From positions 864,001 through 928,000 of the forward strand of contig OZ245033.1 of NCBI GenBank assembly GCA_965224025.1: 64,000 bases of DNA, given 5' to 3'. Of this stretch, positions 23,933-47,983 are shown piece after piece; the first letter of the stretch is position 1; each line of letters begins with the position of its first letter. The notes below the pieces were generated by a model. The model saw only the letters and a program-made list of their open reading frames with translations. It did no database searches and was not told the origin of the DNA. Source of the stretch: Candidatus Multivorans sp. (GTDB lineage Bacteria > Acidobacteriota > Thermoanaerobaculia > Multivoradales > Multivoraceae). A program made the position numbers and the translations under genes.

Positions 23933-23967
23933 GGGGATTATATACGAGAGTGCCGGGGCCGAACGGC

Positions 23968-24165
23968 TCACCGGCGCACGTTCTTCGGTGACTTGATGTA
24001 GTTGACCTTCACTTCGGCGGCCAGCGCATCGGTCAGTTGCTCGAACGTGGCGTCGATCCGCAAGTCCTTCCGCAACTCCGCAGCGGACGGCTGGTAGTTC
24101 GGATGAACGATGTCCACCGTTGGACGGTTCGGTCCTTTGTCCTTCTCTACTTGCTTTCGAGCCAC
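23968..24165 (-). CDS. Small IS-terminal hypothetical protein (element A)
   Basis: GTG 24165, 65 aa, basic N-terminus and 'DATFEQLTDAL'. Positional counterpart of 47796-47978. Confidence 0.6.
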   Translation of the reverse strand: MARKQVEKDKGPNRPTVDIVHPNYQPSAAELRKDLRIDATFEQLTDALAAEVKVNYIKSPKNVRR

Positions 24166-25458
24166 GCCAGCTTCTCCCTCAGTTCTGAGATCATGTTTGC
24201 TTTGGCGATGCTGTCTTCGCTCGTACCCTTGGCGAGATTGCACGGTCGGCAGAGCAGTTGCAGGTTGTCGAGTTCGTCTCCGCCGCCTTCGGCTTGCGGC
24301 ACGATGTGGTCAACTTCCATGACGTTGAACTGGGTGAAGGTGGAGCACATGGCACACCGCGCTTCCTGCTGGCCGTAGAGCAGGTGCTTGTGACTGGTCG
24401 GCTTCGGCGGCGCTTGCGACTCCGGGACGCTCTCTGCGGTCCAGTACTGGATGTCGTGGAGCACCGTACCCATGAACGAGACTTCGTTCGTCAGCCGCTC
24501 CTTGACGAGCTTGTACGCCATGTCGCTGATGTCCATGCCGATCCACTGGCGGCGCAAACGCTCCGCCGCTACGCAGGCTGTGGCGCAACCGCAGAACGGA
24601 TCCAGGATGATGTCGCCCTCGTTCGACGATGACCGGATGATCCGTTCCAAGAGTGCTAGCGGTTTCTGGGTCGGATAGCCGACGTTCTCGGAGGACTGCG
24701 AGTTCAGGAAGTTGATGTCGAACACATCTGTGTGCCGGTTGCCCTGGGTCGTGTCCACTGCCTTGATGATGTCGAAGTCGTTGCGGTTGATCTTCCCTTT
24801 GGCTTCCTTCCGGGCCAGAACAGCTTCGTCGTAGATGTACAGGTAGCGCTGTCCGTTCATTCGCTTCGTGTTGTAGCCAGCCCGAATGAGTTGCTGCTTC
24901 CGTGGCGACAACTCGGAATCGTAGGTCGCGGTGTAGTGGAACTTCGTGGAGCGCGAGTAGAACAGGACCGTGTCGTGAGCGCGCAGAAACTTCTTGGCCC
25001 GCGAGTTCGCCACCTTCTTGTATGACCACACGATCTCGTTGCGGAACTGGTTCCGCCCGAAGATGGAGTCCATCAGCGTCTTGAGGTAGTGGCTGGCGGT
25101 TGGATCGCAGTGCAGGTACACGCTGGCCGTGGGCTTCATAACACGCCGTAGTTCGAGCAGCCGCACTGCCATGTAGATCAGGTACGCCTTCATGCCCTTC
25201 GAGTGCGCGGTGCCCGCCGCGTCGATGGTCTGGTACAGCGCCGGGTGGTGTTCCGCGAGTTCGCCGTGCCCGCCGCCTTGCTGCCTATCGGCGCAGCGAA
25301 GTTCCGGTTCTTGTTGAACGGCGGATCGAGGTAGACCAGATCTACGCATCCGTCCGCCATTCCGCGCAGGATGTTGAGGTTGTCGCCCGTGTGGATCGCC
25401 CGAACCCAATCCTGCGGTCCGTATCTTGCAGGGACAATTCCGCGCCGTCCGCCGTCAT
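24147..25458 (-). pseudogene. Beta-class N6A/N4C DNA methyltransferase-HNH endonuclease fusion, frameshifted at the 5' end
   Basis: ATG 25458 is coupled to tnp. 'IHTGDNL..YLDPPFN' is in a second frame and 'HGELAE..YLHCDPTASHYLK..GYPTQKP..DPFCGCAT' in a third. C-terminal CxxC..DHIVP..NLQLLCxxCN HNH. Confidence 0.85.
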
Positions 25459-26453
25459 GCCGTCGCTTCCCGTGCGCCCGAAGGCAGGCCGTTGTCGGCG
25501 ATTAGGTCACGGTAGCGGAGGCGCTTGCCATCCATGTCTTCGGCGAAGCGGTCCAGTTGCTCCGCCGTGTCGAACTCGCGGACGTTCTGCCGCCAGCCGA
25601 ACTCGTCCACGTAGCGCTGCAACTGCTTCGGCGAGAGCTTGTGGAACGTGCCTTTGTGCGAACGCTTGAGCATGGACCACAGGGACTCGATGCCATTCGT
25701 GTGGATCTTGCCGTCCACGTACTCGCCGACCGAGTGCTTGACCGTGCCACGCTCATACTCGGTCAGACCCGCGTAGGCCCCGGTGTCGTCGGTGTAGACC
25801 GTCGCGCCGGGTTCGACATGCTCCCGGACGAATGCCTGTAGGGTCTCGCCATCGGTCGAGCGAACCACGCGGGCCGCTACCTGTTTCGTCTCGCGGTCCT
25901 TCACTCCCACCACCGCCGTCTTGCCGACCGTGCCGCGACCTTCCATCGTCTTCCGCTTCTTGGCGTGCATGTTCTTCCGCAACCCGCCGATGTACGTCTC
26001 ATCGGCTTCAACCGGGCCGGGGAACAGGACGTTCGGCCCGTTCGTCTCAAACGCCGCCCGGAGACGCTGCGCCATGAACCACGCGGTCTTCTGAGTGACA
26101 CCGAGGTCGCGGTGCAGCTTCATGCTCGACATGCTCTTGAGGCTGGTCGTCAGCAGGAACGCCGCGAGCATCCACTTCTGGAAGCCGATCTTCGAGCCTT
26201 CCATGACGGTGCCGGTCTTCGCGCTGAACCGCTGGTAGCAACCCTTCTCGCGGCAGCGGTACGGCATCGACTTGTGCTTCGCACCCGTCTGGACATTGTT
26301 GGACCCGCAGGCCGGGCAGGTCGGCCCGACGGGCCAGCGGCGCTTGACGTACCATGCCTCCGCCGTCTTGTTGTCGGGGAATATCCGCATCATCTCCACC
26401 AGAGTGATGCCCTTCCGGTATGCCTTGCCGGGTGCCTTGTGCTCAGTCATCAT
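25455..26453 (-). CDS. IS1595-family transposase (Zn ribbon + HTH + ISXO2-like DDE)
   Basis: CPACG..YRCREKGC, 'VEADETYIGG', 'VYTDD', 'HTNGIESLWSMLKR'. Confidence 0.95.
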   Translation of the reverse strand: MMTEHKAPGKAYRKGITLVEMMRIFPDNKTAEAWYVKRRWPVGPTCPACGSNNVQTGAKHKSMPYRCREKGCYQRFSAKTGTVMEGSKIGFQKWMLAAFLLTTSLKSMSSMKLHRDLGVTQKTAWFMAQRLRAAFETNGPNVLFPGPVEADETYIGGLRKNMHAKKRKTMEGRGTVGKTAVVGVKDRETKQVAARVVRSTDGETLQAFVREHVEPGATVYTDDTGAYAGLTEYERGTVKHSVGEYVDGKIHTNGIESLWSMLKRSHKGTFHKLSPKQLQRYVDEFGWRQNVREFDTAEQLDRFAEDMDGKRLRYRDLIADNGLPSGAREATA

Positions 26454-26460
26454 GCCCAGA

Positions 26461-26490
26461 ATCTTACAGGAGAGTGCCGGGGGAAGTCAA
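26461..26490 (-). promoter_or_regulatory. Transposase promoter of element A, with a TIR-derived operator in the spacer
   Basis: TTGACT-18 bp-TAAGAT, with the -10 box 7 bp before ATG 26453. The spacer contains a copy of the TIR motif GAGAGTGCCG. Confidence 0.6.
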
Positions 26491-26520
26491 GCGCTTTCGG
26501 CACTCTCGTATATAATCCCC

Positions 26521-26579
26521 TTCAGAATGTAGCCATTGAGAGTGGGGTCTTCTGGAATCACCAGAACGCGCACACTCAC
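26521..26579 (-). pseudogene. 5' part of the IS-interrupted TOPRIM/DUF4276-like gene
   Basis: GTG 26579 overlaps the ATPase stop (GTGA) and encodes MSVRVLVIPEDPTLNGYILK. Confidence 0.75.
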
Positions 26580-27799
26580 AAAGCCGCCTCCATCCACCCC
26601 TCCGTGAACAGATCGGCCACACCGCCGGCAGCGACGGCCTTGCGGAAGTCGGGAATGTCCTGCAAGGCCGTGATCGTCGCGTCGCCCTTGTCCGCGTTTC
26701 GCCGGCAGACGTAGGTTGTGGCGTACTCGGTTCTCTTGAGCCACGCGAGAACGGCCGGCGAATGAGTGGTCGCCATCACTTGTGTCGACCGGCGCGCGGC
26801 GTTCGACCGGAGAAGCTCCAGGAGCAGGCGCGTACGGCTCGCGTGAATGCCGTTCTCGATCTCCTCGATCGTCATGATCCGCGGCATGTCGGGCTGAAAG
26901 AAGGCCGCCGCGATTGCAGCGAACCGAAGCGTGCCGTCACTCAACACCGGCGCCGGAAACTCTCTGTTCCCTTCCCGCAACATGAAGAGCGGCTCGCCCA
27001 CGGCACCAGGTAAGGTGGCAACGCTGTCTACTTCCGCCGGCCGCAGCTCGCGCAGCCACTCCAGATAGCCGGCTTCCGTTTCCGGATCCGTGCAGATCGT
27101 CCTGACCAGGGCGGCGAAGTTCTCTCCGCGCTCGCCCATGCGGTCTACCTGCTGCGCCTGTGAGTAGCCTCTCAAGACGGTCGGCGCGGGGTCGATTCGC
27201 TGCGTGTTGACCAATTCGTCCGCCACCCGCGCAGCGTCCGCCCGATGCTGCGGTTCCACCCGCTTCGCCCCTTCGAACTGCCCCAGAACTGGCTGGCTCC
27301 GCTCGAACTCCAAGTGGCGGGGACGGCCAACCTTGCCGTGGTAATACTCCACTCGATGAACGGGACTCCCGATGCCGCCGCGGTCGGCATACCGGGAGTC
27401 AAAGACGGAACGGCCTGCGTACACCAGCCTCTCCTGTGCCACATGCCCCCTCCGGGGAGACACGGTCACCGAGTACCGCCATCGCCTTGTCGCCTTCCCA
27501 ACACTCAGCCTGCCGGCCGCGTCAATCGTGAAAGTCTCCGGCTGTTCGCTCCCTTCGAAACACGCCTTCGCGCTTCCGCCTCGGATTCCCTCCCAGACTT
27601 CACTGGTCGCGCTTCTTGGCTTGCCGTCGAGAATCTCGCTCACCGTGAAGCGGCTACCCACTCCCTGCAGCACGCGAAGTGCATCGAGGAAATTCGACTT
27701 TCCGCTGGCATTGGCACCAACGAACAGGTTCATTCCGCCCAACGCCACGGTCACGTCGCGAAAGCTCTTGAAGTCCCTGATGGTGATTCGGTCGATCAT
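26576..27799 (-). CDS. ABC-type AAA_21 family ATPase (putative defence component)
   Basis: GANASGKS Walker A, LSDGT signature, IEEIENGIH Walker B/D-loop, TTHSP switch, and no TM partner. Confidence 0.88.
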   Translation of the reverse strand: MIDRITIRDFKSFRDVTVALGGMNLFVGANASGKSNFLDALRVLQGVGSRFTVSEILDGKPRSATSEVWEGIRGGSAKACFEGSEQPETFTIDAAGRLSVGKATRRWRYSVTVSPRRGHVAQERLVYAGRSVFDSRYADRGGIGSPVHRVEYYHGKVGRPRHLEFERSQPVLGQFEGAKRVEPQHRADAARVADELVNTQRIDPAPTVLRGYSQAQQVDRMGERGENFAALVRTICTDPETEAGYLEWLRELRPAEVDSVATLPGAVGEPLFMLREGNREFPAPVLSDGTLRFAAIAAAFFQPDMPRIMTIEEIENGIHASRTRLLLELLRSNAARRSTQVMATTHSPAVLAWLKRTEYATTYVCRRNADKGDATITALQDIPDFRKAVAAGGVADLFTEGWMEAAL

Positions 27800-28048
27800 G
27801 GCGTTGCCTGCCCGCTCTATCGCCGCCCGGCCGCACGCTGCCTGAGAACGGGGCTAGGCAGCGCTGGCGCCGCGCCGTCAATCAACGGACGCCACGGAGG
27901 GTAGCAGCGTTCCTCGGCGCCATGGTGCCCCCGTGACAGTCCGCAATCGTGGACTGCACCTACCACTGCTTGACCAGCGGCTGGTCCTTTGGCCCGGGCC
28001 AGCGTCACACGTTGCGAACCGCCCGAGAGCGCCCGCACTCGAGCTCCC

Positions 28049-29506
28049 TCAATACCGCGGCAACGACGGATCTACTTCCTCCGCCCAGGCATCGATTCCG
28101 CCGGCCAAGTTGTACGCCTGCTGGAAGCCGTGGTCGCGGAGGATGTGCGTGGCTCTCGTCGACCGCGGACCGTGGTGGCAGTGGACGACCCACAGGCGCG
28201 ATGGGTCGAGTTCATCGACCCGGCCCTCGAGTTCGGCGACCGGGATCAGGGTCGAGCCGTCGATCCGGCAGATCGCGTACTCCTGCGGACCCCGGACGTC
28301 GAGAATGCTGAACTCGCGGCCGTCGTTCATCCAGGACTGGACCTGGGTCGGCGTCACGTCGATCATCTCGTTTAGGGCCGGTTCCTCAGCGACGGCGGGG
28401 ATGCCGCAGAACTGCTCGTAGTCGATGAGTTCGGTCTGGGTCGGGTTCTCCGAGCAGATCGGGCAGTCCGGGTTCTTGCGCAGCTTGAGTTCGCGGAAGC
28501 TCATGCGGAGCGCATCGAATAGCACCAGACGACCGATCAGGGGATCGCCCTGGCCGATGATCAGCTTGATCACCTCGTTGGCCTGAAGGCTGCCGATGAT
28601 GCCGGGCAGCACGCCGAGGACGCCGCCTTCGGCGCATGAGGGAACGAGTCCCGGCGGCGGCGGCTCGGCGAACAGGCAGCGGTAGCAGGGGCCCCTGGCG
28701 CCCCAGAAGACGGACACCTGGCCCTCGAAGCGGAAGATGGAGCCGTAGACGTTCGGCTTGCCGAGCAGGACGCAGGCGTCGTTGACGAGATAGCGGGTCG
28801 GGAAGTTGTCCGTACCGTCAACGATCAGGTCGTAGTCTGCGAAGATCTCGAGCGCGTTGCTCGAGTCGAGCATGACCGGATGCGGCACGAGTTCGATGTG
28901 GGGGTTCACCTCGCACAGGCGCTCGACCGCGGCGTCGATCTTGGGGCGGCCCACGTCGGCGTTGCTGTAGAGCAACTGGCGGTGCAGGTTCGACTCGTCG
29001 ACGACGTCGAAGTCCACCAGGCCGAGGTGGCCGACTCCGGCGGCGGCGAGGTACATGCCGAGCGGCGAGCCGAGGCCGCCGGTGCCGATCATCAGCACCC
29101 TGGCGGCCTTGAGCTTCAACTGCCCCTCGGAGCCGACCTCGGGCATGATCAGGTGCCGGCTGTAACGGAGGATTTCCTCCGGGCTCAGCTCGGTGGCGGT
29201 CGCCTGGGCCGGGGCCGGTGGTTCCGCCACCGTGCCGCCCGCGATCGACGGGATGATCGCCAGCGTCGCGTCGCCGACGATCGTCGTCGCCTCCCGTCCC
29301 AGGTAGCGCACGTCCTCGTCGTTCAGGAACAGGTTGACGAAGGTCCGCAGCTTGCCGTCGTCGCCGAACAGGTGGGGCCGCAGCCCTTCGTACCGCGTGA
29401 CGAGCTCCTCCATCGCCTCGCCGACGGTCGCTCCGGCCACGGCAACCTCGGCGTTCTCGTCGGCGAAGCCCCGGAGGGGCGTGGGGATTTGTATGAGTAC
29501 GGTCAT
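28049..29506 (-). CDS. moeB: CysO/MoaD-like sulfur carrier fused to MoeB/MoeZ adenylyltransferase-rhodanese
   Basis: Ubiquitin-like domain ending PSIAGG, 'RYSRHL..GTGGLGS..SNLHRQ..CYRC..SCAEGGVLG', and C-terminal rhodanese CHHGPRS. Confidence 0.9.
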   Translation of the reverse strand: MTVLIQIPTPLRGFADENAEVAVAGATVGEAMEELVTRYEGLRPHLFGDDGKLRTFVNLFLNDEDVRYLGREATTIVGDATLAIIPSIAGGTVAEPPAPAQATATELSPEEILRYSRHLIMPEVGSEGQLKLKAARVLMIGTGGLGSPLGMYLAAAGVGHLGLVDFDVVDESNLHRQLLYSNADVGRPKIDAAVERLCEVNPHIELVPHPVMLDSSNALEIFADYDLIVDGTDNFPTRYLVNDACVLLGKPNVYGSIFRFEGQVSVFWGARGPCYRCLFAEPPPPGLVPSCAEGGVLGVLPGIIGSLQANEVIKLIIGQGDPLIGRLVLFDALRMSFRELKLRKNPDCPICSENPTQTELIDYEQFCGIPAVAEEPALNEMIDVTPTQVQSWMNDGREFSILDVRGPQEYAICRIDGSTLIPVAELEGRVDELDPSRLWVVHCHHGPRSTRATHILRDHGFQQAYNLAGGIDAWAEEVDPSLPRY

Positions 29507-29541
29507 CGTCAGTCTCCGTCAGACTCAGTCTTGTACGTGTT

Positions 29542-30000
29542 TCAGGGCGCACCCGTTTCGGGGCACTGGATCGGTTCTTCGTCGAAGCGGGAGCGGTCGT
29601 CACTCAGCCGCCAACTGCGCTCGTCGCTGGCGCGGCCCTCGCGCACCGAGACGATCAGGTAACTGTAGCCCGGCCAGGCATGATCGCGGTCGAAGTCGCT
29701 GGGACGCGATGGATGGTCGGGATGGGAGTGGTAGTAACCGACGACATCCAGGCCGTCCGCCCGCGCCTCCCGCTCGGTCCGCAGGATCACTTCGGGCGGG
29801 ATCAGGTAACGGTTGTGCCGGTTCTCGTCCTCACGCGTGTTCTCGGCGCCCACCAGCCTCACGACCCGGGCCGACACCGAACCGTTCCCGCCCGCGGCCT
29901 TCTCGGTGCGGCCCACCAGGATGCCGCAGCACTCCTCCGGGTAGGTGGCCTCGCCGTGGGCGCGGATGCGGGCCAGGTCGTCTGGGGACAGTTCGATCAT
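29542..30000 (-). CDS. mec: JAB/JAMM metallopeptidase (Mec-like, M67)
   Basis: ATG 30000, 'YPEECCG..YHSHPDHPSRPSDFD' JAMM motif. Confidence 0.88.
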   Translation of the reverse strand: MIELSPDDLARIRAHGEATYPEECCGILVGRTEKAAGGNGSVSARVVRLVGAENTREDENRHNRYLIPPEVILRTEREARADGLDVVGYYHSHPDHPSRPSDFDRDHAWPGYSYLIVSVREGRASDERSWRLSDDRSRFDEEPIQCPETGAP

Positions 30001-30044
30001 CCTCGAGATCTCGGTGCGGTCGTTGCGTGCGCCGGTCCGGCGAC

Positions 30045-31046
30045 TCAGTCTTCGTCCCAGAACGGCTCGGACAGGTACTTGTCCGCGCCGTCGCACAGGA
30101 TGGTGACGACGACGACGCGTTCCCCGCCCTCGGCGGCGCGCTCGGCGATCCGCCGTGCCGCCACCACGTTCGCGCCGGCCGAGATGCCGACCAGCAAACC
30201 GCTCCGCCGGGCGAGCGCCTTGACCTCGGCGTACGCGTCCTCCGTGCTTACCGCCGCCTCCTCGTGGGCGATCCCCGGATCGTAGATCGCGGGCACCAGG
30301 GCGCTCGCCATGTGCTTCATTCCCTCGAGCCCGTGGAACGGTCCGTCGGGCTGCATCGAGATGAGCCGCACCTCCGGCGCCCGCTCGGCCAGGTACCTCG
30401 CCGTGCCGCAGAAGGTGCCGCTGGTTCCCAGGCCGGCGACGAAGTGGGTAAGGCGCCCCTCCGTCTGCAACCAGATCTCCGGGCCCGTGGTTTCGAAGTG
30501 GGCGCGCCAGTTGGCGGCGTTGCTGTACTGATCGACGTAGCAGAAGTCGGCCGGCGTCGCCTCGATCATCCGATGCGCCTCCCGGATCGCGCCGTCCGAG
30601 CCCTCCATCGGATCGGTGAGGACGAGCTCGGCGCCGAACGCGCCCAGGATGCGGCGGCGCTCGATCGACGCGTTCTTCGGCAGGCACAGGGTGACGCCGA
30701 CGTCCATCGCCGCACCGATCATCGCGAGGGCGATGCCCGTGTTGCCGGAGGTCGCGTCCAGGATGCGGCGGCCTTCCTCGAGCTGGCCGACATCGCGCGC
30801 CGCCAGCATCATGTGGCGCGCGGGCCGGTCCTTCACCGAGCCGCCGGGGTTCGCCATCTCCGCCTTGGCCAGCAGTTCGGAGCCCAGCGCCTGTGCCGCC
30901 GGTCCCAGCGCGTGGCTGAGGTCGAGCAGCGGCGTGTTGCCTATCAGGGACAGCAGCCGCCGGGCGGCAGCGCCCAGTTCCGCCGGAAGCGGCGGGCCGG
31001 CCAAGGGGGCGGCGGAAGCCGCGGCGAGAGGAGGTTCAGCGATCAT
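30045..31046 (-). CDS. cysM: PLP-dependent cysteine synthase
   Basis: 'IGNTPL..KAEMANPGGSVKDR..TSGNTG..GLGTSGT'. Confidence 0.9.
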   Translation of the reverse strand: MIAEPPLAAASAAPLAGPPLPAELGAAARRLLSLIGNTPLLDLSHALGPAAQALGSELLAKAEMANPGGSVKDRPARHMMLAARDVGQLEEGRRILDATSGNTGIALAMIGAAMDVGVTLCLPKNASIERRRILGAFGAELVLTDPMEGSDGAIREAHRMIEATPADFCYVDQYSNAANWRAHFETTGPEIWLQTEGRLTHFVAGLGTSGTFCGTARYLAERAPEVRLISMQPDGPFHGLEGMKHMASALVPAIYDPGIAHEEAAVSTEDAYAEVKALARRSGLLVGISAGANVVAARRIAERAAEGGERVVVVTILCDGADKYLSEPFWDED

Positions 31047-31099
31047 TCTGTGGGCACCCGGTCGCGGCTCCAGCACAGGCGGTGGAGCGGCGACCGCGA

Positions 31100-31124
31100 A
31101 TTGTTGACCAGAATACTCACATTT
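31100..31124. promoter_or_regulatory. Candidate Rrf2-family (IscR/CymR-type) operator in the divergent promoter region
   Basis: AT-rich ATTGTTGACCAGAATACTCACATTT resembles the type-1 IscR consensus. Confidence 0.4.
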
Positions 31125-31174
31125 GACAACCGGTAGCCTGCACACGACGCCGCGACCCGGTATTCTCCGCCGCG

Positions 31175-31801
31175 ATGAACGACTCTCCGCACAGCGGCGA
31201 CGACCGCGTGCCCCCCGGCCAGTACGTCACGAAGAAGTGGCCCGTGCTGTCTGTCGGCGACACGCCGGAGGTGGACACGGCCGGGTTCGGGATGCGCCTG
31301 TTCGGCCGTCTCGAAGCGGAGCACTCCTTCGACTGGCAGACGCTCCAGGCGCTGCCGCGCCGGGAAGTCGTCGCCGACTTCCACTGCGTGACCCGCTTCT
31401 CGACCCTGGACAACCCGTGGTCCGGGTTCTCGACCAGGGACGTTCTGGCCGCCGTGCAGCCCACCGCAGGCGCCACCAATGCCATGATCCACTGCTACGG
31501 CGGCTACACGACGAACCTGCCGCTTAAGGACCTGCTCTCCGAGCACGCGCTGTTCGCCGACCGCCACGGCGGCGAACCGCTGGCGCCCGGCCACGGCGGT
31601 CCACTGCGCCTGGTGGTGCCCCATCTCTACGCTTGGAAGAGCGCCAAGTGGGTCTCCGGCATCGAGTTGCTGAACGCCGACGAGCGGGGCTTCTGGGAGG
31701 AGAACGGGTACCACACGTACGGCGATCCTTGGGCGGAGCAGCGCTTCTCGTCGCAGGAGACGCGGGAAGCGTGGCAGGTGCGGCGGGCGGTGGGGGGCTG
31801 A
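31175..31801 (+). CDS. Sulfite-oxidase-like molybdopterin oxidoreductase (YuiH-like)
   Basis: 'PPGQY..DFHCVT..HGGPLRLVVPHLYAWKSAKW..GFWEENGYH'. Confidence 0.9.
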   Translation: MNDSPHSGDDRVPPGQYVTKKWPVLSVGDTPEVDTAGFGMRLFGRLEAEHSFDWQTLQALPRREVVADFHCVTRFSTLDNPWSGFSTRDVLAAVQPTAGATNAMIHCYGGYTTNLPLKDLLSEHALFADRHGGEPLAPGHGGPLRLVVPHLYAWKSAKWVSGIELLNADERGFWEENGYHTYGDPWAEQRFSSQETREAWQVRRAVGG

Positions 31802-31811
31802 GAATTCGCGC

Positions 31812-31945
31812 TCGCCGCTTCGCGGCGGAGCGCCGGATGCGGACCAGAAGGTCCGCGCACCCAGAGAAGGTCGACGGCTTGGCGAAGCGCTCTACGCAAC
31901 TGGTGGGTCGTCGTGCAGGCACCGGATGCGGACCAGAACCCGGGT
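31812..31945. repeat. REP-like cluster: composite REP plus a half-REP joined to the start of a GAACC repeat
   Basis: CGCCGC-TTC-GCGGCG, then GCCGGATGCGGACC-AGAA-GGTCCGCGCACCCAG, then CCGGATGCGGACCA-GAACCCGGGT at 31922. Confidence 0.7.
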
Positions 31946-35095: not shown

Positions 35096-35102
35096 CTTGA
35101 AG

Positions 35103-35963: not shown

Positions 35964-35979
35964 CGCTCCCGCCCGTTCC

Positions 35980-38219: not shown

Positions 38220-38224
38220 AAGGC

Positions 38225-38262
38225 GGCGAATAATACACCACAATGGCGCACGATTACTCGCG
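38225..38262. promoter_or_regulatory. Tandem ARG boxes upstream of argC
   Basis: Cores CGAATAATACACCA (38227) and CGCACGATTACTCG (38247) have a 20-bp period and resemble TGMATAATTATKCA. Confidence 0.55.
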
Positions 38263-38267
38263 CGGAA

Positions 38268-40746: not shown

Positions 40747-40750
40747 CAGC

Positions 40751-41299
40751 TCAGTGGAAGCCCTTGAGCTCGAGCACCGACTCCATGGGAATCGCTTCGG
40801 CCCAGTCGAGGGCGTTCTTGTCGCCGATCGTCAGCTTGTCCAGGAACTGTCGCGCCTCGTCACGGTGGGTGAACAGCCGCCAGATGAAGGTGTGGCCGGC
40901 CGGCGCGGTGAAGTACGTGTAGTTCCGCATCCCCTCGCTCAGATCGAAGCCGAGGTCCGATTCGCCGTTGACGCCGACGCAGGCCATCGCGATCGCCCGG
41001 TACGCGAGTGCGAGCGCCTTGAGCGGCTCCTCGAAGTCGGACAACTCCTCGCGCGACAGCGGCGAGTGGTAGAGGGCGACCCGCGAACCGTCCTCCTCGG
41101 CGAGCACGTTGTACGGCACGTCCGCCCGGTCGAGAGCGTCCCGCGTCTCGCTGGTCATCACGAAGACATCGTCCGTGTCCTCGACCTTGTACGCGATCGC
41201 GAAGGTCTCCGAATCCAGACCGGCGAACGACTCGGCAAGGATGCCCTCATCCTCGATCGTGAAGTAGTAGAGGCGCGAGATCATCCGACGGGTAGCCAT
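40751..41299 (-). CDS. Hypothetical protein
   Basis: 182-aa ORF with host-like codon use and a GGAG RBS, in an operon with xseA. Confidence 0.75.
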   Translation of the reverse strand: MATRRMISRLYYFTIEDEGILAESFAGLDSETFAIAYKVEDTDDVFVMTSETRDALDRADVPYNVLAEEDGSRVALYHSPLSREELSDFEEPLKALALAYRAIAMACVGVNGESDLGFDLSEGMRNYTYFTAPAGHTFIWRLFTHRDEARQFLDKLTIGDKNALDWAEAIPMESVLELKGFH

Positions 41300-41407
41300 G
41301 CGTATTCAACTCCTGGGTCGGCCGGAAGCGGCCGAGCGGCCGGAATCCTACCGGATTCGCGGCCCCGCCGGAGGGTTCCTGACGCGGTTCTTCGGCTCGG
41401 CCTTCCG

Positions 41408-42079
41408 TCAGGACTTCGAGCGCTCCTCAAGAAACCGTTCGAACTCCTCCCGCTCCTCCGGCGTCACATCTTCCAGGCCGATCAGGTACTCGCCACCGGC
41501 TTCCGGCAGCGGCGCCTGGATCAGAGTGACGGCGCGCTCGATCGCGTCGCAGTCGAGGCTGACCAGCACCAGGGCCATCTGCCGGCAGACAGTGAAGAGC
41601 TGCGTGCCCAACTCGCTCTCGATCCTCACCTGGGCCGCTTCCGGCATCCGCTCCGTCGTGATCCAGTAACCCTCCTCGGCCCGCCGCACGGTGACCCGGC
41701 CCTCCAGGTAGAGGGTCTGGCGCGGAACGGTCAGTTCCTGGCTCAGCCGGCTCTCCAGGCTGCCGATGGTGACTTCCGCGTCGATGCGGCCCGAACCGGC
41801 GATCTCCAGTTCGAGCGCGGTTTCGAACACGCCGTCGGGAGCGGGAGTCAGGGTCGCCGCGTGGTGGGTTACCGTCAGGGAGTGCTCGGGCGAGCGCAGC
41901 ATGACCTCGGCGGGGCCGATGTGCACCGGAACCAGATCGTCGATCAGGCGCTCGTAGACCCGGTTGAGACGCTCGAAGGACACCACGCGGGTTCCGGGCT
42001 CTTCCTGAGCCGCCGCCGGCCCGGACAGGAGCAACGGCGCCAGCACCGCCAGCGGCGGCACCGGCAGCAGAGCGCTCAT
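41408..42079 (-). CDS. Hypothetical secreted protein
   Basis: Signal peptide (AAAQ), ATGA-coupled to the VWA gene. Confidence 0.75.
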   Translation of the reverse strand: MSALLPVPPLAVLAPLLLSGPAAAQEEPGTRVVSFERLNRVYERLIDDLVPVHIGPAEVMLRSPEHSLTVTHHAATLTPAPDGVFETALELEIAGSGRIDAEVTIGSLESRLSQELTVPRQTLYLEGRVTVRRAEEGYWITTERMPEAAQVRIESELGTQLFTVCRQMALVLVSLDCDAIERAVTLIQAPLPEAGGEYLIGLEDVTPEEREEFERFLEERSKS

Positions 42080-44673
42080 GGGTAGTAGCCGCTGATCGTC
42101 CGCGCCTTGAACCGGCCCTTGACCTTCACCTCGACCTCGCGGTACTCGTCGCCGTCGCCGGCCCGGTTCGAGTTGTACGCCAGGAGGTACTGCGAGCGCA
42201 GTTCGCGCTCGATCTCGTCATAGACCGGCGCCAGATCCTCGGCCTTGGAGATGAAGAACGACCTGCCGCCGGTGACCTTGGCCAGGCCGCTCAGCTTGTT
42301 GCGCAGGATCATCTGGGTGCGGCCGATGCCCAGCCCGATCGCGTAGATCGCGACCGCCGAGCGCCGTGCGTAATCCTCGACGTCAGGAAACGAGACCGTG
42401 CTCGCCGTGTCTGCGCCGTCGGAGAGCAGGACCAGAGCGCGCCGGCCTCTGACGCCCCGGAAGTAGTACAGGCTGGTGATCAGCGCATCGTGCAATGCGG
42501 TGTTGCCGGCGGCGCGCAGATTCTCGATCGAGGAAGCGACCGCGCTGACGTCGGACGTCCGGCCGATCAGCAGCACCGGACGTGAGGCGAAGGCGACCGC
42601 GAAGGAACGGTCGCGCGGAGTGATCAGGTTGGCCAGAAACTGCGACGCCGTCCGGCGCGCCTCGCCGAGGGACGTTTCCATCGACCCCGAAGTATCGATC
42701 ACGACGCCCAGGGTGAGCGGCAGGTCCTCGACCAGTTCGAACTTCGCGAGCTCCTGCCGGCGCTTGTCTTCCATGACGGTGAAGTCGGTCTCTAGCAGCG
42801 TCGTCACCGGCCTGTTCGCACTGTCGACCACCGTCGTGTAGAGCTCGACCAGGTCGACGTCGACCGTGTCGGTGAACTCGGGAGCGTTCAGGAAGCGCAC
42901 GTCCTCCGCGCGGCTGCCATCGTCCAGCGTGGCGGCGACGGTGAGGTACACGAGCTCCTGATCGCCGGCCGCGGGCACATCGATCTCGGCACGCCACGGC
43001 GGTCTGCGCAGCACCGTCTGAACCTCTTCTCCGACCCGGAACTCGACCTCCTGAACCACGCGCTCCTCGGGCACGATGACCGTGGCGGCGGCATCCACCT
43101 TGCCCGTCACCCGAACACCCCGCCGCGGTTCGTTGATCAGCACCCGCAACTCGCCGCGCTGCTGGTTCAGCACCAGTTCGTCCGCACCCACGACTTCGCC
43201 GTTCTCGTCGAGCCCCTCGACCCGAACCACCTGCTCGGCCGGGTACTTCGCCAGCCGCACCTCGGCGGTGAACGGGGGCCGGCGGCGCGTGACCTGGAGC
43301 ACGCCGTCGACGACGAACCGCATCGCTGTGATCTCGCTCCCGGTCACCAGGGTCTCTGCCCGCCACAACCCGAGCACCACCTCGCTTTCGGGCGGCACCA
43401 GGACCACGCCGCTGTCCGCATCGAGCGTTGTCTCCGGCAGGTCCGCCACCAACTGCTCCGCCGCCAGGATGAGGCGGCGGCGGTCCTCCGAACTCGCCGG
43501 CTCCGTCTGCGGCGCCAGCGGCACCTCGACCGGCACCGCCCCGAAGGCCACGGCGCCGCCGATCTCGTCCCGCACCAGGAACCTCACCAGGACAACCGAA
43601 CCGGGACGCAGCAAGTGCTCCATCGGCAGCGCCAGCGACCGGTCCTCCGGCGGCGTGCCCGAGAGGAAGCGCACCCGGAAGGCATCGAAGATCCGGCCCG
43701 GCTGCTCGACCACGCCTTCCACGTTGATCCGGACCTGCTCTCTGCCGTCGTCGTCCACGAAGGGCTCGTACGCCGCGCCCGGCGGCAGCGAGAAGAGGAT
43801 CCTGGTCAGGATGCGCTGGCCGCTCCGCGCCGGGAAGGTGACGATCGGATCCTCGAGCTCCAGTGCGGGCGGCGCCGCCACTTGGTCGGCCGCGGCCGCC
43901 ACGGCCCAGGCATCCAGATCCTGCGGGGGCCGCAACCACGCATGGAGGCGAGCGGTCGACGGACGTTGCCGCCGGAAGTCGAACAGGCCCCAGACGCCTG
44001 TGGCCCGGTCGACCCGTCGCGCCTCCTCGCAGACCTGCAGGTCGAAACGGCGGGCTCGCAGGAGGCCCCGAAGCTCTTCGTACTGCTCGAGCCAGTACTC
44101 CATCTCGGGCATGTACAGAACCCGCTTCGAGTACTCGGGCAACCAGAGCTGGAACGCCTCGTTCGGCTTGGGCTGGAAGAGGACCAGGTTCTCGTGCTCG
44201 CCCTCCTCCGGCCCGTAACGCCAGATCTCAAGCGGCCGGAAAGTCTGATCGCAGTCGACCGGCTCGATGTCGTCCGGCGCCCCGTGCAGGAACAGCAACT
44301 GCGCGCGGACATCGAAGAACGGCGCACCCGTCTGACGGATCCGCCGCCGACGCTGCTCGATGCCCTCGGCTAGCTGGGCGCGGTTCAGGAAGGTCCCGAT
44401 GTACTCGCGCCGGGACGCCGGGTTGAGGTTCTGGACCCGGTGCAACTCAGCCGACGCCAGCAGGTACTGGGGTCCGTCGAGAAAGAACTCCCGCTCCTCG
44501 TCGCTCCACTCGGAGAGCCGCCAACCCACGTCCTGAGCGACCACCGTCGCCGGGACGAGGCAGGCGGCAACCAGAAGCAGCCGGCGGATCCGCGCCCCGA
44601 TTCCCCCCGGTTTCACCACGACATCCGGTACAGCATCCAGCGCCGCGGTGGCGTTGAGGGTGGACAGGTGCAT
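42076..44673 (-). CDS. GWxTD-like + Ig-like + acidobacterial VWA domain protein
   Basis: 'RAQLLFLHGAPD..EIWRY' and MIDAS 'DTSGSM..TALHDA..LSDGADT'. Start is uncertain. Confidence 0.85.
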   Translation of the reverse strand: MHLSTLNATAALDAVPDVVVKPGGIGARIRRLLLVAACLVPATVVAQDVGWRLSEWSDEEREFFLDGPQYLLASAELHRVQNLNPASRREYIGTFLNRAQLAEGIEQRRRRIRQTGAPFFDVRAQLLFLHGAPDDIEPVDCDQTFRPLEIWRYGPEEGEHENLVLFQPKPNEAFQLWLPEYSKRVLYMPEMEYWLEQYEELRGLLRARRFDLQVCEEARRVDRATGVWGLFDFRRQRPSTARLHAWLRPPQDLDAWAVAAAADQVAAPPALELEDPIVTFPARSGQRILTRILFSLPPGAAYEPFVDDDGREQVRINVEGVVEQPGRIFDAFRVRFLSGTPPEDRSLALPMEHLLRPGSVVLVRFLVRDEIGGAVAFGAVPVEVPLAPQTEPASSEDRRRLILAAEQLVADLPETTLDADSGVVLVPPESEVVLGLWRAETLVTGSEITAMRFVVDGVLQVTRRRPPFTAEVRLAKYPAEQVVRVEGLDENGEVVGADELVLNQQRGELRVLINEPRRGVRVTGKVDAAATVIVPEERVVQEVEFRVGEEVQTVLRRPPWRAEIDVPAAGDQELVYLTVAATLDDGSRAEDVRFLNAPEFTDTVDVDLVELYTTVVDSANRPVTTLLETDFTVMEDKRRQELAKFELVEDLPLTLGVVIDTSGSMETSLGEARRTASQFLANLITPRDRSFAVAFASRPVLLIGRTSDVSAVASSIENLRAAGNTALHDALITSLYYFRGVRGRRALVLLSDGADTASTVSFPDVEDYARRSAVAIYAIGLGIGRTQMILRNKLSGLAKVTGGRSFFISKAEDLAPVYDEIERELRSQYLLAYNSNRAGDGDEYREVEVKVKGRFKARTISGYYP

Positions 44674-44882
44674 CGGGCATGAGCTTAGCCGGGTTCACCG
44701 CACGGACCGTGCCGACTGAATGCGGTCGGGAACCCGCTCGTCTGTTGGACGGCATCGTCGACACCGCCGTACCTCATATCGACCGAGGTCCGCCCGCCGT
44801 TTTGCAACCATATCGTGGACGACTATCTCCTAGCACAGGAGTTCAGGCGCACCCCGAGCGTCGTCACACCATCGGCGAGATT

Positions 44883-44930
44883 GAGTTCCGGTCGCGACAC
44901 TAGGAGTTCCGGTCGCGACACTAGGAGTTC
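44883..44930. repeat. 21-bp tandem repeat (2.3 copies)
   Basis: GAGTTCCGGTCGCGACACTAG x2 plus GAGTTC. Confidence 0.85.
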
Positions 44931-44932
44931 GC

Positions 44933-45066
44933 CAGCGGTGCTCCGCTGCGCTGTCGCGCAGGGAACGAGGCGGCGCCCGGATGCGGGCAGGATGCCCGCG
45001 TTCCCAGGGGCTTGTTCCATGCAAGTAGGGACAGCGGTGGTCCGCTGCGCTGTCGCGCAGGGAACG
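44933..45066. repeat. 35-bp double-hairpin direct repeats flanking a REP palindrome
   Basis: CAGCGGTG(C/G)TCCGCTGCGCTGTCGCGCAGGGAACG at 44933 and 45032, with GCGGGC-AGGAT-GCCCGCGTTCCCAGG between them. Confidence 0.8.
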
Positions 45067-45295
45067 GGTGGTGGATTCTGCGGCCGTTGCAGGAGGCGTA
45101 GAGTTGGGTCGCGCTGGGCAGCGAGGCCGTCGGAGCACTGGTGTGTTTGCACCCGCAATGCAAGTTTGGCCCGGACCGTGATCGGCGTTCTGACGCTGGC
45201 GGCGCGGCTCTTGCCGCGACCCCGTATGCAAGAGTGACGTTTCCGCCGCGGTCTCTGTCCAGCGCGACCATTTGAATGGGGATTATATATTAGGC

Positions 45296-45324
45296 TTGAC
45301 ACGGGCGCTGATTTCCCGTAGTGT
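45296..45324 (+). promoter_or_regulatory. Transposase promoter of element B
   Basis: TTGACA-17 bp-TAGTGT, with the -35 box overlapping the inner TIR. Confidence 0.65.
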
Positions 45325-45352
45325 CTAGGGACACTGGACGGGAGATGAAACG

Positions 45353-46339
45353 ATGAAGCACAAGGCACCCGGCAAGGCTTACCGCAAGGGACTGACGTTC
45401 GTGCAACTGGCGCGGATGTTCCCCGATGAAGCAGCCGCGCGAGACTGGTTCGAGACGTACCTTTGGCCCGATGGAGTGAAGTGGTGCCCGAACTGCGGCG
45501 GCGACAACACGCACGCATGCAAGCACAAGCAGATGCCGTACCGCTGCCGCGACTGCAAGCGGTACTTCAGCGTCAAGACCGGCACGCTCATGGCTGGTTC
45601 GCCGTTGCCTCTGTTGACGTGGCTCTACGCGATCTACCTCGAACTCACATCGCTCAAGGGCGTATCGAGCATGAAACTGCACCGTGACCTAGGCGTCACT
45701 CAGAAGACCGCTTGGCACATGCTCCAGCGCATCCGCGAAGCGTTCGCCGCCGAAGGGCCGGAAGTCCGGTTCGACGGTCCCGCCGAAGTGGACGAGACGT
45801 ACTTCGGCGGTCTGCGGAAGAACATGCCGAAGTGGAAGCGTGCGGAGCTTGAAGGTCGCGGCACGGTCGGCAAGACCGCCGTGGTGGGCATCAAGGACCG
45901 CGAGACCAAGAAGGTCGCGGCGAAGGTGGTCCGCTCCACCGACGGCGAGACCCTACAGGCGTTCGTGCGCGAGCACGTCGAACCCGGCGCGATGGTGTAC
46001 AGCGACGATACCGGGGCGTACAGCGGTCTGACCGAGTACGAGCGTGGCACGGTGAAGCACTCGGTCGGCGAGTACGTGGACGGCAAGGTCCACACGAACT
46101 CGATCGAGAGCTTCTGGTCGATGCTCAAGCGGGCGCACAAGGGTGTGTTCCACAAGATCAGTCCGAAGCACCTGCAACGCTACGTCGATGAGTTCGCGGG
46201 TCGGCAGAACATCCGCGAGTACGACACGCTGGCGCAGATGGTCGCCGTCACGGAGGGACTCGCGGGCAAGCGGCTCCGCTATCGTGACCTGATCGCCGAC
46301 AACGGCCTGCCGTCGGGCGCGCGCGAGGCCGCCGCATGA
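45353..46339 (+). CDS. IS1595-family transposase
   Basis: CPNCG..YRCRDC, 'EVDETYFGG', 'VYSDD', 'HTNSIESFWSMLKR'. Close paralog of 25455-26453. Confidence 0.95.
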   Translation: MKHKAPGKAYRKGLTFVQLARMFPDEAAARDWFETYLWPDGVKWCPNCGGDNTHACKHKQMPYRCRDCKRYFSVKTGTLMAGSPLPLLTWLYAIYLELTSLKGVSSMKLHRDLGVTQKTAWHMLQRIREAFAAEGPEVRFDGPAEVDETYFGGLRKNMPKWKRAELEGRGTVGKTAVVGIKDRETKKVAAKVVRSTDGETLQAFVREHVEPGAMVYSDDTGAYSGLTEYERGTVKHSVGEYVDGKVHTNSIESFWSMLKRAHKGVFHKISPKHLQRYVDEFAGRQNIREYDTLAQMVAVTEGLAGKRLRYRDLIADNGLPSGAREAAA

Positions 46340-47782
46340 CCATCCTCGGTTCGTTCAGTCTGGTTCCAAACAGCCTCTACTACGGCGACTGCCTCGAAGT
46401 CATGGGCGGTTGGCCAGCCGAGTCGGTGGATCTGATCTACCTCGATCCGCCGTTCAACTCGAAGGCGGACTACAACCAGTTGTTCGGCACCGAGAACGGC
46501 GTGCCGGCCCAAGTTCGGGCGTTCACCGACACATGGACATGGAACGACTCGGCGGCCGAGCGGTACGACCGTTTCAGCCGTGCAGTCGCGCATCCCGCGC
46601 ACAAGGCGGTAGTCGGCCTGCACATGGCGCTAGGTCCATCGGGGATGCTCGCGTACCTCACCTACATGGCCGAGCGGCTCGCGGAGTGCAAGCGCCTGCT
46701 CAAGCCGACCGGCTCCATCTACCTGCACTGTGACCACACGGCGGGCGCGTACCTGAAGATGCTCATGGACGCGATCTTCGGAGCGAACAATCGCCGAAGC
46801 GAACTCCACTGGTACTACTACAACAAGATGCACGACAGCCGGAAGAAGCTGTTTGCTGCCGCCACGGACACAATCTTCTTCTATGTCAAGGATGTGGACT
46901 CCGGTTTTTCGTTTGAACAACTTCAAGAACGCCGCGAAAAGCCCGTCAAGCAGCTTGTACGAGCCAAAGTCAACGGCCGCATGGTCAACAAGCGAGACGA
47001 AGACGGTCGGCTGATGTACCAGACCAAGACACATAGAACCATTGACAATGTGTGGCGGATACCCTGTTTGCAACCAGCATCGAGGGAGAGATTAGGCTGT
47101 CCAACACAGAAGCCCCGTGCGCTGTTGGATCGCATCATCAAGGCGTCTTCTAGGGAAGGTGACTTGGTGCTTGACCCGTTCTGCGGTTGTGGCACGACGA
47201 TAGACGCGGCGAATCGACTGCAACGGCAGTGGGTCGGCATCGACCTTTCACCGTTCGCCACTCGCCTTGTGCGTGACCGCAGGCTCAAGGATGCGAGTAT
47301 CCAGATCTTCGGTATCCCGACAGATGTTGAAGGCGCACGGCTCCTGCTACGCAACAACCCGTTCGACTTCGAGGCGTGGATCGTTACGTCGGTGGACGGG
47401 CTGGCGGCGAACGAGGTCCAGGTAGGCGACGGCGGCATCGACGGGCGCGGCAGGATGTTCACCGTGCCGGACGATGAAACAGGCTTGGTGCTCGCTCAGG
47501 TGAAGGGGGGGGTACACCGCATCGGCGCTGCGGGACTTCGAGGGCACGATGGGCCGCGAGAACGCCACGGCGGGCATCTTCGTCACCTTGAAGCGCGTCA
47601 CAACGTCCAGTGCCCGCGCGGCTGCCAAGGCGATGGGCGAGTACCGCGTAGGCGCGACGCGCTACCCTCGGCTCCAGTTCTGGTCCGCAGAGGAGTATCT
47701 GAGGGGCGTCCGTCCTCACCTACCCGCGATGGCCGACCCGTACACCGGCAAAGCAGTTCAGACCGACATGTTCACCGGATAG
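46336..47782 (+). CDS. Beta-class DNA methyltransferase fused to an Mrr-like PD-(D/E/Q)xK endonuclease, frameshifted at G8 (47505-47512)
   Basis: DPPFN, YLHCD, PTQKP and DPFCGCGTT, then 'FDFEAW..GDGGIDGR..AQVKGG'. 'YTASALRDF..ENATAGIFVTL' continues in the next frame to the stop at 47782. Confidence 0.85.
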
Positions 47783-47795
47783 CAGGGAGGAAGCG

Positions 47796-47978
47796 TTGCC
47801 CAAGAAGCCGAAGCGCCACACGGAACACAAGAAGGTGTACAAAGCCGAGTACGGCGGCGCTACGCCCGCGCAGGTCACGCTTGCGCTTCTACGCTACCGT
47901 CCAAACGCACCCGAAGCCGTCACGAAGCGTTTGCCACCGCAGGTTCAAGCCGACCCCGCTATCAAGTCTAGTGTATAA
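47796..47978 (+). CDS. Small IS-terminal hypothetical protein (element B)
   Basis: GGGAGG RBS and TTG start, 60 aa, basic N-terminus and 'GATPAQVTLALLR'. The stop lies inside the TIR. Confidence 0.6.
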   Translation: MPKKPKRHTEHKKVYKAEYGGATPAQVTLALLRYRPNAPEAVTKRLPPQVQADPAIKSSV

Positions 47979-47983
47979 TCCCC

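Follow-up and report, generated by a model that had tools for sequence, protein, structure and literature searches.

We analysed a 64-kb stretch of the genome of Candidatus Multivorans sp. (contig OZ245033.1, positions 864,001 to 928,000; hereafter the window), in which two insertion sequences (IS) of the IS1595 family, termed elements A and B, each carry a beta-class DNA methyltransferase gene with a C-terminal nuclease domain directly after the transposase gene. A and B are probably members of an IS1595-type 'transporter' IS family with an exchangeable methyltransferase–nuclease passenger, which would be a mobile restriction-modification (R-M) or epigenetic module. The assembly (5.14 Mb, 67.6% G+C, 3 contigs) holds 12 copies of this transposase, comprising four of B, four of a type C (81% identical to B), three of a type D (74%) and the single A. 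Related loci and genomes are designated below by L and G numbers, respectively.

The decamer GGGGATTATA occurs four times in the window, against 0.32 occurrences expected, and none of 100 shuffles of the window reached this count. The occurrences form inverted pairs at 23933 and 26511-26520 and at 45278 and 47974-47983, which delimit element A (23933-26520, minus strand, 2588 bp) and element B (45278-47983, plus strand, 2706 bp), exactly as claimed in an earlier note made from the sequence alone. The layout proposed there for A, with a terminal inverted repeat, transposase, methyltransferase–HNH gene, small open reading frame (ORF) and second inverted repeat, is borne out by the coordinates and Pfam matches (Table 1). 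The same holds for the assignment of an HNH nuclease to the cargo of A and a Mrr-like nuclease to that of B, in which N6_N4_Mtase matches over 46336-47500 (1e-48) and Mrr_cat over 47510-47782 at 4e-4 and 20.9 bits, slightly below Pfam's 21-bit cut-off.

The B transposase scores 187.5 bits against the NCBIfam model transpos_IS1595 (cut-off 75), and the A transposase is 71–75% identical to the B, C and D transposases, with 71% identity to B. The DDE domain (PF12762) is also matched by types C (1.2e-39) and D (3e-40), and the zinc ribbon (PF12760) is matched above its 25.4-bit cut-off by B, C and D (30.7–33.6 bits) and below it by A (18.7 bits). The A and B transposases share the C-terminal residues ...GKRLRYRDLIADNGLPSGAREA-A and, in agreement with the common gene end described previously, both genes finish ...KRLRYRDLIADNGLPSGAREA(T/A)A where the cargo ATG overlaps the transposase TGA stop. 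Two further claims stand for one element each: a right-end ORF of 60–65 amino acids was proposed for both, and B encodes 60 whereas A encodes 49, or 91 if translation starts at an upstream GTG overlapping the cargo. A promoter was likewise proposed for both; our scan detected one sigma-70-like site in A, where 0.5 sites are expected by chance per region and which is thus not significant alone, and no site passing the scan upstream of the B transposase.

Element A is present as a single copy with a dead cargo, inserted into a host gene. Judged against type D and L018, its cargo bears two frame-disrupting lesions close to the 5' end: one nucleotide is missing beyond the first ~9 codons, outside any homopolymer, and ~40 nt are missing behind the DPPF motif. 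The DPPF segment (25190-25360) is not in the frame of the main body. The cargo of B is 64% identical to an intact homologue in L123, and its 388-residue methyltransferase part is intact. The frame is broken at a run of eight G residues (G8), where B is two bases short of the L123 frame and L123 reads K-G-G-G-Y; this run is one of 24 G/C runs of at least eight bases on contig C1, four of which belong to the B copies. The four B copies encode 100% identical transposases and differ by one substitution and one extra 1-nt insertion, the latter in non-repetitive sequence of one copy. All four carry the G8 frameshift, which implies that B multiplied after its nuclease was cut.

Type C measures 2857 bp; its four copies are 100% identical, each is flanked by a different perfect 8-bp duplication, and the cargo is an intact, ATGA-coupled methyltransferase–Mrr gene encoding 528 amino acids. 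Type D measures 4980–5019 bp, with 27-bp inverted repeats ending GGGGATTATG, and contains two opposite-strand small ORFs, the transposase, a tandem octamer, a methyltransferase–HNH gene with an intact body of 437–450 residues, an opposite-strand M48/PDZ gene and the small right-end ORF. In one D locus (L014), the small ORFs lie between the left repeat and the transposase (129-572 and 563-955, minus strand) and have no family matches, and the extra passenger is a predicted M48 peptidase with a PDZ domain (499 amino acids, 3358-4857, minus strand). Perfect duplications flank seven of the nine GGGGATTATA-bounded copies, including two of the B copies, the exceptions being B in the window and the copy at C1:2130591. 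These elements move as units with their cargo. A D junction probe matched 14 of 20 other congeneric genomes, at 76% nucleotide identity at most; because the congeners hold only such diverged relatives, the identical multi-copy sets represent recent expansions in this lineage.

Comparisons between elements support an exchange of cargo by recombination at two scales, that of the whole cargo and that of the recognition-domain kilobase alone. We inferred trees of the transposase and of the methyltransferase core for 20 elements, with nuclease labels checked by Pfam for all but L118. The methyltransferase tree separates HNH-fused from Mrr-fused clades (SH-aLRT, the Shimodaira–Hasegawa-like approximate likelihood ratio test, 98) and the transposase tree mixes them, such that nuclease type changes once on the former and five times on the latter. 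Approximately unbiased (AU) tests rejected monophyly of the Mrr type on the transposase data (p = 2e-57) and the pairing of type C with L018 on the methyltransferase data (p = 2.4e-4). The incongruence between transposase and cargo trees supports the interchangeable cargo that the earlier note had put forward.

A clean replacement of a whole cargo is provided by type C and L018, a locus on a Candidatus Multivorans chromosome with an apparently identical counterpart (L208) in the congeneric genome G408. Their transposases are 93% identical at the amino acid level (76–98% nucleotide identity in 50-nt windows) and the right-end ORF and inverted repeat are 76–82% identical at the nucleotide level, whereas the cargo proteins are only 38% identical and L018 has HNH in place of Mrr; identity drops between the transposase stop and the small ORF. 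At the smaller scale, the D copy at C1:1968051-1973030 (D2) matches the other D copies at 100% identity in two blocks, positions 1-2200 and everything from 3195 onwards, and at 41–88% in the ~1 kb that separates them. No silent donor of this segment was found in the genome, where the best other match reaches 74%. Similarly, the central ~150-residue domain of L106 is ~80% identical to that of type C, which is of the Mrr type, and its N- and C-terminal parts, HNH included, match L018. An 83-bp stretch at the YLHCD...DAIFG motif is 91.6% identical between D and B, whose cargo proteins are ~44% identical overall. Together with the D2 and L106 mosaics, this stretch places the crossover arms inside the cargo in the conserved methyltransferase motifs flanking the recognition domain. 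A recombination arm had instead been proposed at the 3' end of the transposase gene, which our data do not specifically support: the ADNGL-SGAR tail is clade-wide and also accompanies KilA-N/P63C, gamma-class methyltransferase or no cargo, and the identity of this end (51–55 of 60 nt, 12–16 of 20 third positions) is no higher than that of other transposase windows.

The domain organization of the cargo is consistent with a one-protein R-M enzyme made of a beta-class methyltransferase and a C-terminal nuclease. A structure model of the type C cargo (mean predicted local distance difference test score 84) matched the EcoP15I Mod chains best in Foldseek (1e-18), followed by 6k0w and the Mbo45V Mod. 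The N6_N4_Mtase domain has its DPPF motif N-terminal and its FxGxG-type motif C-terminal of a central recognition domain, and PADLOC MTase_III models match down to 5e-36. The HNH residues (CxxC, DH, N, CxxC-N-K) are invariant in all 10 sequences compared and the Mrr-type residues (E392, D415 and Q435-x-K437) in all 30. The Mrr-like domain is the C-terminal part of a methyltransferase fusion and not a stand-alone enzyme with its own N-terminal DNA-binding domain; its Mrr_cat matches are accompanied by weak Pfam matches to the inactive NA-iREase1 family, and the HNH domain has a weak NCBIfam match to the IscB HNH (3.7e-7, far below cut-off). Fused nuclease and methyltransferase with intact catalytic residues are found in types C and D and in relatives, A and B being broken. 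No res gene, encoding the helicase–nuclease, lies within the A, B, C or D elements, and in the absence of a res-like partner the cargo does not qualify as a Type III system. In sequence searches against solved structures, every match was either a methyltransferase standing alone or an HNH protein of another kind, and no chain combined the two domains. The enzyme family is large, with at least 8000 candidates at E <= 0.001, the top 120 of which are at least 56% identical over their full length and annotated at source only as 'DNA methyltransferase'; 55 of 401 genomes of the phylum have a cargo match at 1e-30.

To place these elements in a wider family, we used a scan of one genome per species, which returned 558 relatives, and analysed the best 80, whose transposases are 44–68% identical to that of A. 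These 80 come from metagenome-assembled genomes labelled Acidobacteriota, Alpha- and Gammaproteobacteria (Pseudomonadota), Chloroflexota, Gemmatimonadota, Thermodesulfobacteriota, Spirochaetia and others; annotated relatives on plasmids have transposases at most 42% identical, named only 'IS1595 family transposase'. A script searching for inverted ends of the GG[GA]...TATA type delimited 48 of the 80, of which 36 have a perfect 8-bp duplication and 39 a duplication with at most one mismatch, with lengths of 1351–5438 bp. Most of the 36 measure 2–5 kb, and lengths below 1.8 kb occur in only seven of the 39. Members of the family thus usually carry cargo, and the case that the earlier note had set against its own reading, in which most members lack cargo, is not what we observe.

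By tblastn, 17 of the 80 relatives have a homologue or remnant of the methyltransferase–nuclease directly after the transposase, on the same strand in 12 and on the opposite strand in five (L049, L053, L056, L077 and L084). The single layout proposed for A and B is thus not universal. The cargo of L019, L025, L027 and L081 is a mere fragment (HNH tail, N-terminal piece or Mrr piece), in elements of 1.6–1.8 kb where delimited, indicating that some small members are deletion derivatives of cargo-bearing ones.

Pfam searches of 95 ORFs from the 39 elements, together with a further Pfam run, revealed methyltransferases of three classes in the cargo slot. Fused N6_N4_Mtase–HNH genes occur in L026, L048, L053, L056 and L062, gamma-class N6_Mtase genes (616–860 amino acids) in L042, L066 and L068, a C5 cytosine methyltransferase in L096 (6909-7931), and a complete two-gene Type II system, an N6_N4 methyltransferase with an MvaI/BcnI endonuclease, in L095 (6908-8496). 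KilA-N and/or P63C genes form a second recurrent class of passenger (KilA-N/P63C in L033 and L092, P63C in L022, KilA-N in L046); most of the 95 ORFs have no Pfam match and a few carry other domains. In this genome the transposase stop reads ATGA in all four types. A TGA stop terminates 38 of the transposases of the 80 relatives and forms part of A/GTGA in 24 of them, of which 14 are followed by an ORF of at least 60 codons, with methyltransferase–HNH, gamma-class methyltransferase, P63C, KilA-N or unknown products. The diversity of what follows A/GTGA indicates that the overlap of stop and start is a property of the slot and not of one cargo. These data support the fixed cargo slot proposed previously and locate it after the transposase stop and before the small ORF of the right end.

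Most elements have a small basic ORF ending ~5–60 nt from the right terminus, and the shortest, L020, L021 and L023, consist of the transposase and this ORF only. A regular-expression count found it in 22 of 43 elements, in three motif flavours with 6, 12 and 4 members, one of the 12 (L045) looking spurious; further small ORFs were identified by eye. The ORF of B has the Y-x-GATP-x-QV motif common to type C, L018, L033, L042 and L044 (6/43), and that of A belongs to the flavour of 12. Comparisons among the three flavours by hhalign gave probabilities of homology of 67, 57 and 36%. The ORF of A has no Pfam match and that of B no Pfam or NCBIfam match.

The elements share a backbone of inverted repeats of 22–27 bp starting GGGGATTAT, a transposase with zinc ribbon and DDE domain, the small basic right-end ORF and an 8-bp duplication of the target. 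Passengers occupy the slot, and the start codon of the first one usually overlaps the transposase stop (ATGA/GTGA). A single polypeptide is the passenger in this genome, namely a beta-class methyltransferase of the Type III Mod-like kind whose target-recognition domain is central and which ends in an HNH or Mrr-like PD-(D/E)xK nuclease. In the model that we propose, it would be co-transcribed with and translationally coupled to the transposase and, as a one-protein R-M (or epigenetic) module, may benefit or stabilise its carrier. Slippage of a 7- or 8-nt repeat that closely follows the start codon may switch its expression on and off in several lineages.

This last step stems from six cargo genes, those of D, L018, L048, L053, L207 and L219, in which a tandem repeat of a 7- or 8-nt unit lies at the 5' end or shortly before it (Table 1). 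In type D, (CCAGCGCG)n starts 14 nt after the ATGA start and counts 7.0, 7.0 and 4.0 units in otherwise identical copies; the methyltransferase body is in frame +2 relative to the ATG in all three, and one unit fewer or two more would join them. A shares the first five codons of the D cargo and lacks the repeat. The phase is readable at four loci, one in frame (L018) and three out of frame with open gene bodies. Such repeats are rare elsewhere: a screen of the 5.14-Mb genome for units of at most 12 nt that are not a multiple of 3, with at least four copies and at least 90% match, returned five, three of which are those of D, and three of the five repeats with at least seven copies at the loci of the 80 relatives lie at cargo 5' ends. 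These repeats suggest phase variation of the cargo, which we regard as likely. The survey of Type III mod genes by Atack et al. (2018, PMC5909438) counts non-triplet units in at least three copies and homopolymers of at least nine bases as phase-variable, and describes a 7-nt unit behind the start codon of an E. coli mod gene. All six genes have non-triplet units in at least three copies, and A has no such repeat. The G8 run of B falls below the nine-base threshold of the same survey; it may be a decayed homopolymer switch that would separate nuclease from methyltransferase. Taken further, the elements might be mobile 'phasevarion cassettes', in which the IS spreads within the chromosome and across phyla with a one-protein Mod-like R-M enzyme whose specificity is reassorted through exchange of recognition domains and whose expression is flipped by a 7- or 8-nt repeat, or by a homopolymer that uncouples nuclease from methyltransferase as in B, a proposal that we put forward tentatively and regard as rather doubtful.

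Several of our results weigh against these readings. B spread to four copies with a broken nuclease, so the cargo is unnecessary for transposition and selection on it may be weak, and 63 of the 80 relatives lack a homologue of the methyltransferase–nuclease. The enzyme family lives mostly outside IS1595, since a transposase lies within 1.5 kb at seven of 29 loci of the same phylum (a tally that, like that of 55 in 401 genomes, includes the unpublished G024/L117) and nearby at eight of 79 metagenome loci. The Mrr_cat scores are marginal (18–29 bits for a cut-off of 21), and the groups used in the AU tests, other than nuclease type, were named after the first tree was seen. Regarding the repeats, all D copies share the same out-of-frame phase and differ by exactly three units, which keeps it, and translation could also begin, independently of the repeat, at an in-frame TTG directly behind it. 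At the 5' ends of 79 metagenome homologues, no 7- or 8-nt unit is present five times or more, so that such repeats are not typical of the enzyme family as a whole; nine of these loci have some short repeat within 300 nt, four of them 3.1–3.7 copies of 7–10-nt units. Finally, contigs of the D element from four public runs of two studies (Logan) end inside the 8-nt repeat, contain no length variants and are uninformative on length variation.

The strongest competitor to switching is that the 5' repeats are neutral, slippage-prone leaders or translated low-complexity N-termini that hitch-hike, with the out-of-frame genes decaying. We consider this possible, if less than likely. L018 and L207 share both unit and leader peptide, which indicates that the occurrences are not all independent, and the single phase of the D copies and the cargo decay of A and B fit this explanation. 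Five different unit sequences at the same place, each with a length of 7 or 8 nt that is not divisible by 3, are harder to reconcile with it, as are the rarity of such repeats elsewhere in the genome, their concentration at cargo 5' ends among the relatives and the open, full-length gene bodies behind out-of-frame repeats. For Type III mod genes, PMC5909438 takes the same design, a 7-nt unit included, to be phase-variable. The frameshifts of A and B may also be questioned as assembly or base-calling errors in two intact cargo genes. A homopolymer is a classic site of long-read error, the same G8 recurs in all four B copies, and the Logan comparison covered the D element and not A or B. We nevertheless hold such errors to be quite improbable, given that A is ~40 nt short of every homologue and has lost a further nucleotide outside any homopolymer, that B is two bases and not one short of the L123 frame, and that the extra insertion of one B copy lies in non-repetitive sequence.

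Two other explanations concern the function of the cargo. The genes could encode orphan methyltransferases whose HNH or Mrr-like domain only binds or senses DNA, and the elements would then spread an epigenetic mark and not restriction. The success of B with an intact methyltransferase and a truncated nuclease fits this explanation, as do the weak NA-iREase1 matches and the bare source name of the family, but invariant catalytic and metal-binding residues are unexpected in a decayed binding module, and we judge it unlikely. We give far less credence to the methyltransferase–nuclease being no passenger but an accessory of transposition or retention that, like TnpB or IscB, would serve as a homing or donor-site nuclease. 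The overlap of cargo start with transposase stop and the weak IscB match would agree with such a role; against it, ends and duplications are intact in the 63 relatives without this cargo, B moved although its nuclease was broken, the cargo of A is dead, most members of the enzyme family are found away from IS1595 transposases and the slot also holds unrelated genes. We retain the exchangeable R-M or epigenetic passenger as the probable interpretation of A and B.

IS1595 transporter IS (tIS), with passenger genes, were reportedly defined by Siguier, Gagnevin and Chandler in Research in Microbiology (Res Microbiol) in 2009. Like the elements described here, IS1595 tIS have a transposase with zinc ribbon and DDE_Tnp_IS1595 domain, short inverted repeats, an 8-bp duplication and passengers inside the IS. 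The ISNwi1+ forms have passenger genes and lengths of roughly 1.7–4.8 kb. The ends GGGGATTAT and the lengths of 2.6–5.0 kb would fit the ISNwi1/ISNwi1+ consensus, which makes the elements candidate members of this subgroup. Nuclease and methyltransferase also share one polypeptide in Type IIG/IIC enzymes of the MmeI/BcgI type, in which exchange of the recognition domain changes specificity. Known enzymes of this kind have a gamma-class methyltransferase and an N-terminal PD-(D/E)xK domain, whereas the cargo here has a beta-class methyltransferase (N6_N4_Mtase) and a C-terminal HNH or Mrr-like nuclease.

The transposon-like R-M units described by Furuta, Abe and Kobayashi (2010, PMC2853133) likewise have imperfect inverted repeats and an 8-bp target duplication; one unit carries a degenerate transposase-like gene, and allelic diversity of the recognition domain is noted. 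They are single cases without an identified active transposase or family, whereas the present elements have an intact transposase, occur in multiple copies and several phyla, and exchange their cargo. The Type III mod genes of phasevarions, as described in PMC5909438, resemble our cargo in having a beta-class methyltransferase in which conserved arms enclose a variable central recognition domain, a non-triplet repeat in the 5' coding region and swapped recognition-domain alleles. The cargo differs from them in having no res gene, a fused nuclease, a location inside an IS and a high-GC (67.6%) host of 5.1 Mb. Searches of the full-text literature found no description of IS1595 elements with methyltransferase–HNH/Mrr cargo or of repeat-controlled IS cargo. 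Nor did they return the combination seen here, in which an active IS1595 lineage, present in multiple copies and across phyla, has a defined slot for exchangeable Mod-like methyltransferase–nuclease fusions, some with 7- or 8-nt 5' repeats; ISfinder and the 2009 tables may already list such cargo.

Should the cargo be active, these elements would form a small natural vehicle by which single-gene R-M or epigenetic modules are moved, multiplied and reassorted, and for IS biology they offer a well-delimited cargo-slot model (transposase stop, passenger, small ORF, inverted repeat). The cargo also points to a very large unnamed family of Mod-like methyltransferase–nuclease fusions for which we found no solved structure or characterised member. 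If phasevarion cassettes exist, a genome with a dozen copies would possess a combinatorial, stochastically switching methylome and defence repertoire, and the fused beta-class methyltransferase–HNH/Mrr would be an uncharacterised restriction-enzyme architecture. Repeat-driven phase variation of methyltransferases would then extend from small-genome, host-adapted pathogens, in which it has mostly been studied, to large high-GC genomes and IS-borne genes.

The identical copies also mark sites of large chromosomal rearrangements. B in the window has no target-site duplication, its flanks ATTTGAAT and CTTCCAAG being different; the left 8-mer (45270-45277) equals the right flank of the B copy at C1:2130591-2133297, in inverted orientation, and the right flank occupies 47984-47991. 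The flanking 8-mers of the three D copies (C1:240863, 1567988 and 1968051) are cyclically permuted, with one pair off by one base. Homologous recombination between IS copies thus appears to have rearranged parts of the chromosome. For B and its counterpart at C1:2130591, a simple inversion accounts for only one of the two flank pairs and was discarded.

Table 1. Features of elements A and B and their surroundings in the window, and tandem repeats at cargo genes of related loci
Feature	Position	Strand	Details
3' part of host gene interrupted by A	23414..23932	-	frame continues from 26529 (to 26744) across duplicated 8-mer
A target-site duplication, right copy	23925..23932	.	8 bases ATTCTGAA (minus strand), same as 26521-26528
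A right terminal inverted repeat	23933..23955	-	23/23 bases complementary to 26498-26520; starts GGGGATTATA
A small right-end ORF	23968..24117	-	49 amino acids from GTG at 24117; start uncertain; motif ...IVHPNYQPS.AEL...
A cargo, beta-class methyltransferase + HNH, broken	24147..25458	-	N6_N4_Mtase 6.5e-43, HNH 6.6e-12 (Pfam)
A transposase, 332 amino acids	25455..26453	-	DDE_Tnp_IS1595 (PF12762) 3.4e-42
A sigma-70-like promoter match	26461..26490	-	TTGACT, 18 nt, TAAGAT; 9/12
A left terminal inverted repeat	26498..26520	-	23-bp perfect; GGGGATTATA end
A target-site duplication, left copy	26521..26528	.	8 bp ATTCTGAA
AAA ATPase upstream of interrupted gene	26576..27799	-	AAA_21 7.1e-32 (AAA_21/AAA_15); PADLOC PDC-M07A 1.1e-68
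B left terminal inverted repeat	45278..45299	+	19/22 bases match right end
B transposase, 328 amino acids	45353..46339	+	DDE_Tnp_IS1595 1e-39; Zn_ribbon_IS1595 3.1e-7
B cargo, beta-class methyltransferase + Mrr-like nuclease, frameshifted in nuclease domain	46336..47782	+	Pfam
G8 homopolymer at B frameshift	47505..47512	+	inside nuclease domain, just after Q-V-K of nuclease motif
B small right-end ORF, 60 amino acids	47796..47978	+	TTG start behind GGAGGA; stops 5 nt from right end
B right terminal inverted repeat	47962..47983	-	GGGGATTATA end; 19/22 vs left
L018 repeat, (GACGCGG) x9.0	2 nt after transposase		in frame; same unit x9.0 in L208
L048 repeat, (GCGACCG) x20.4	after ATGA start		out of frame; L223 repeats L048
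L053 repeat, (TGGACGGG) x15.1	5' end of opposite-strand gene		out of frame
L207 (congener) repeat, L018 unit x18.3	adjoins inverted-repeat end		phase unreadable, part masked
L219 (congener) repeat, (GTGAAGCC) x9.8	~60 nt upstream of gene		

The host gene interrupted by A has no Pfam, NCBIfam or PADLOC match, and the AAA ATPase gene upstream of it matches the PADLOC candidate model PDC-M07A; the insertion of A probably inactivated this two-gene candidate defence system. A wider defence island was considered and rejected, the other neighbours being housekeeping genes (molybdopterin, arginine, XseA, TonB receptor). At 3 kb from A, the window also encodes a transposase of another kind, which has an rve integrase core domain (1.2e-20; window 19192-20706, minus strand). 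Another of the 24 long G/C runs of the contig, a C10 homopolymer at ~48648 (C1:912648), lies 0.7 kb beyond the right end of B. At L096, the heptamer CTGACCA is repeated 16.9 times (10657-10774), ~1.8 kb outside the delimited element. The duplicated target 8-mers of our own copies and of the 36 relatives, such as ATTCTGAA, AATCCGAA, TTGAGGAA and AAACCGAA, look AT-rich for a genome of 67.6% G+C, and many end in GAA or AAA, which may point to a target-site preference.

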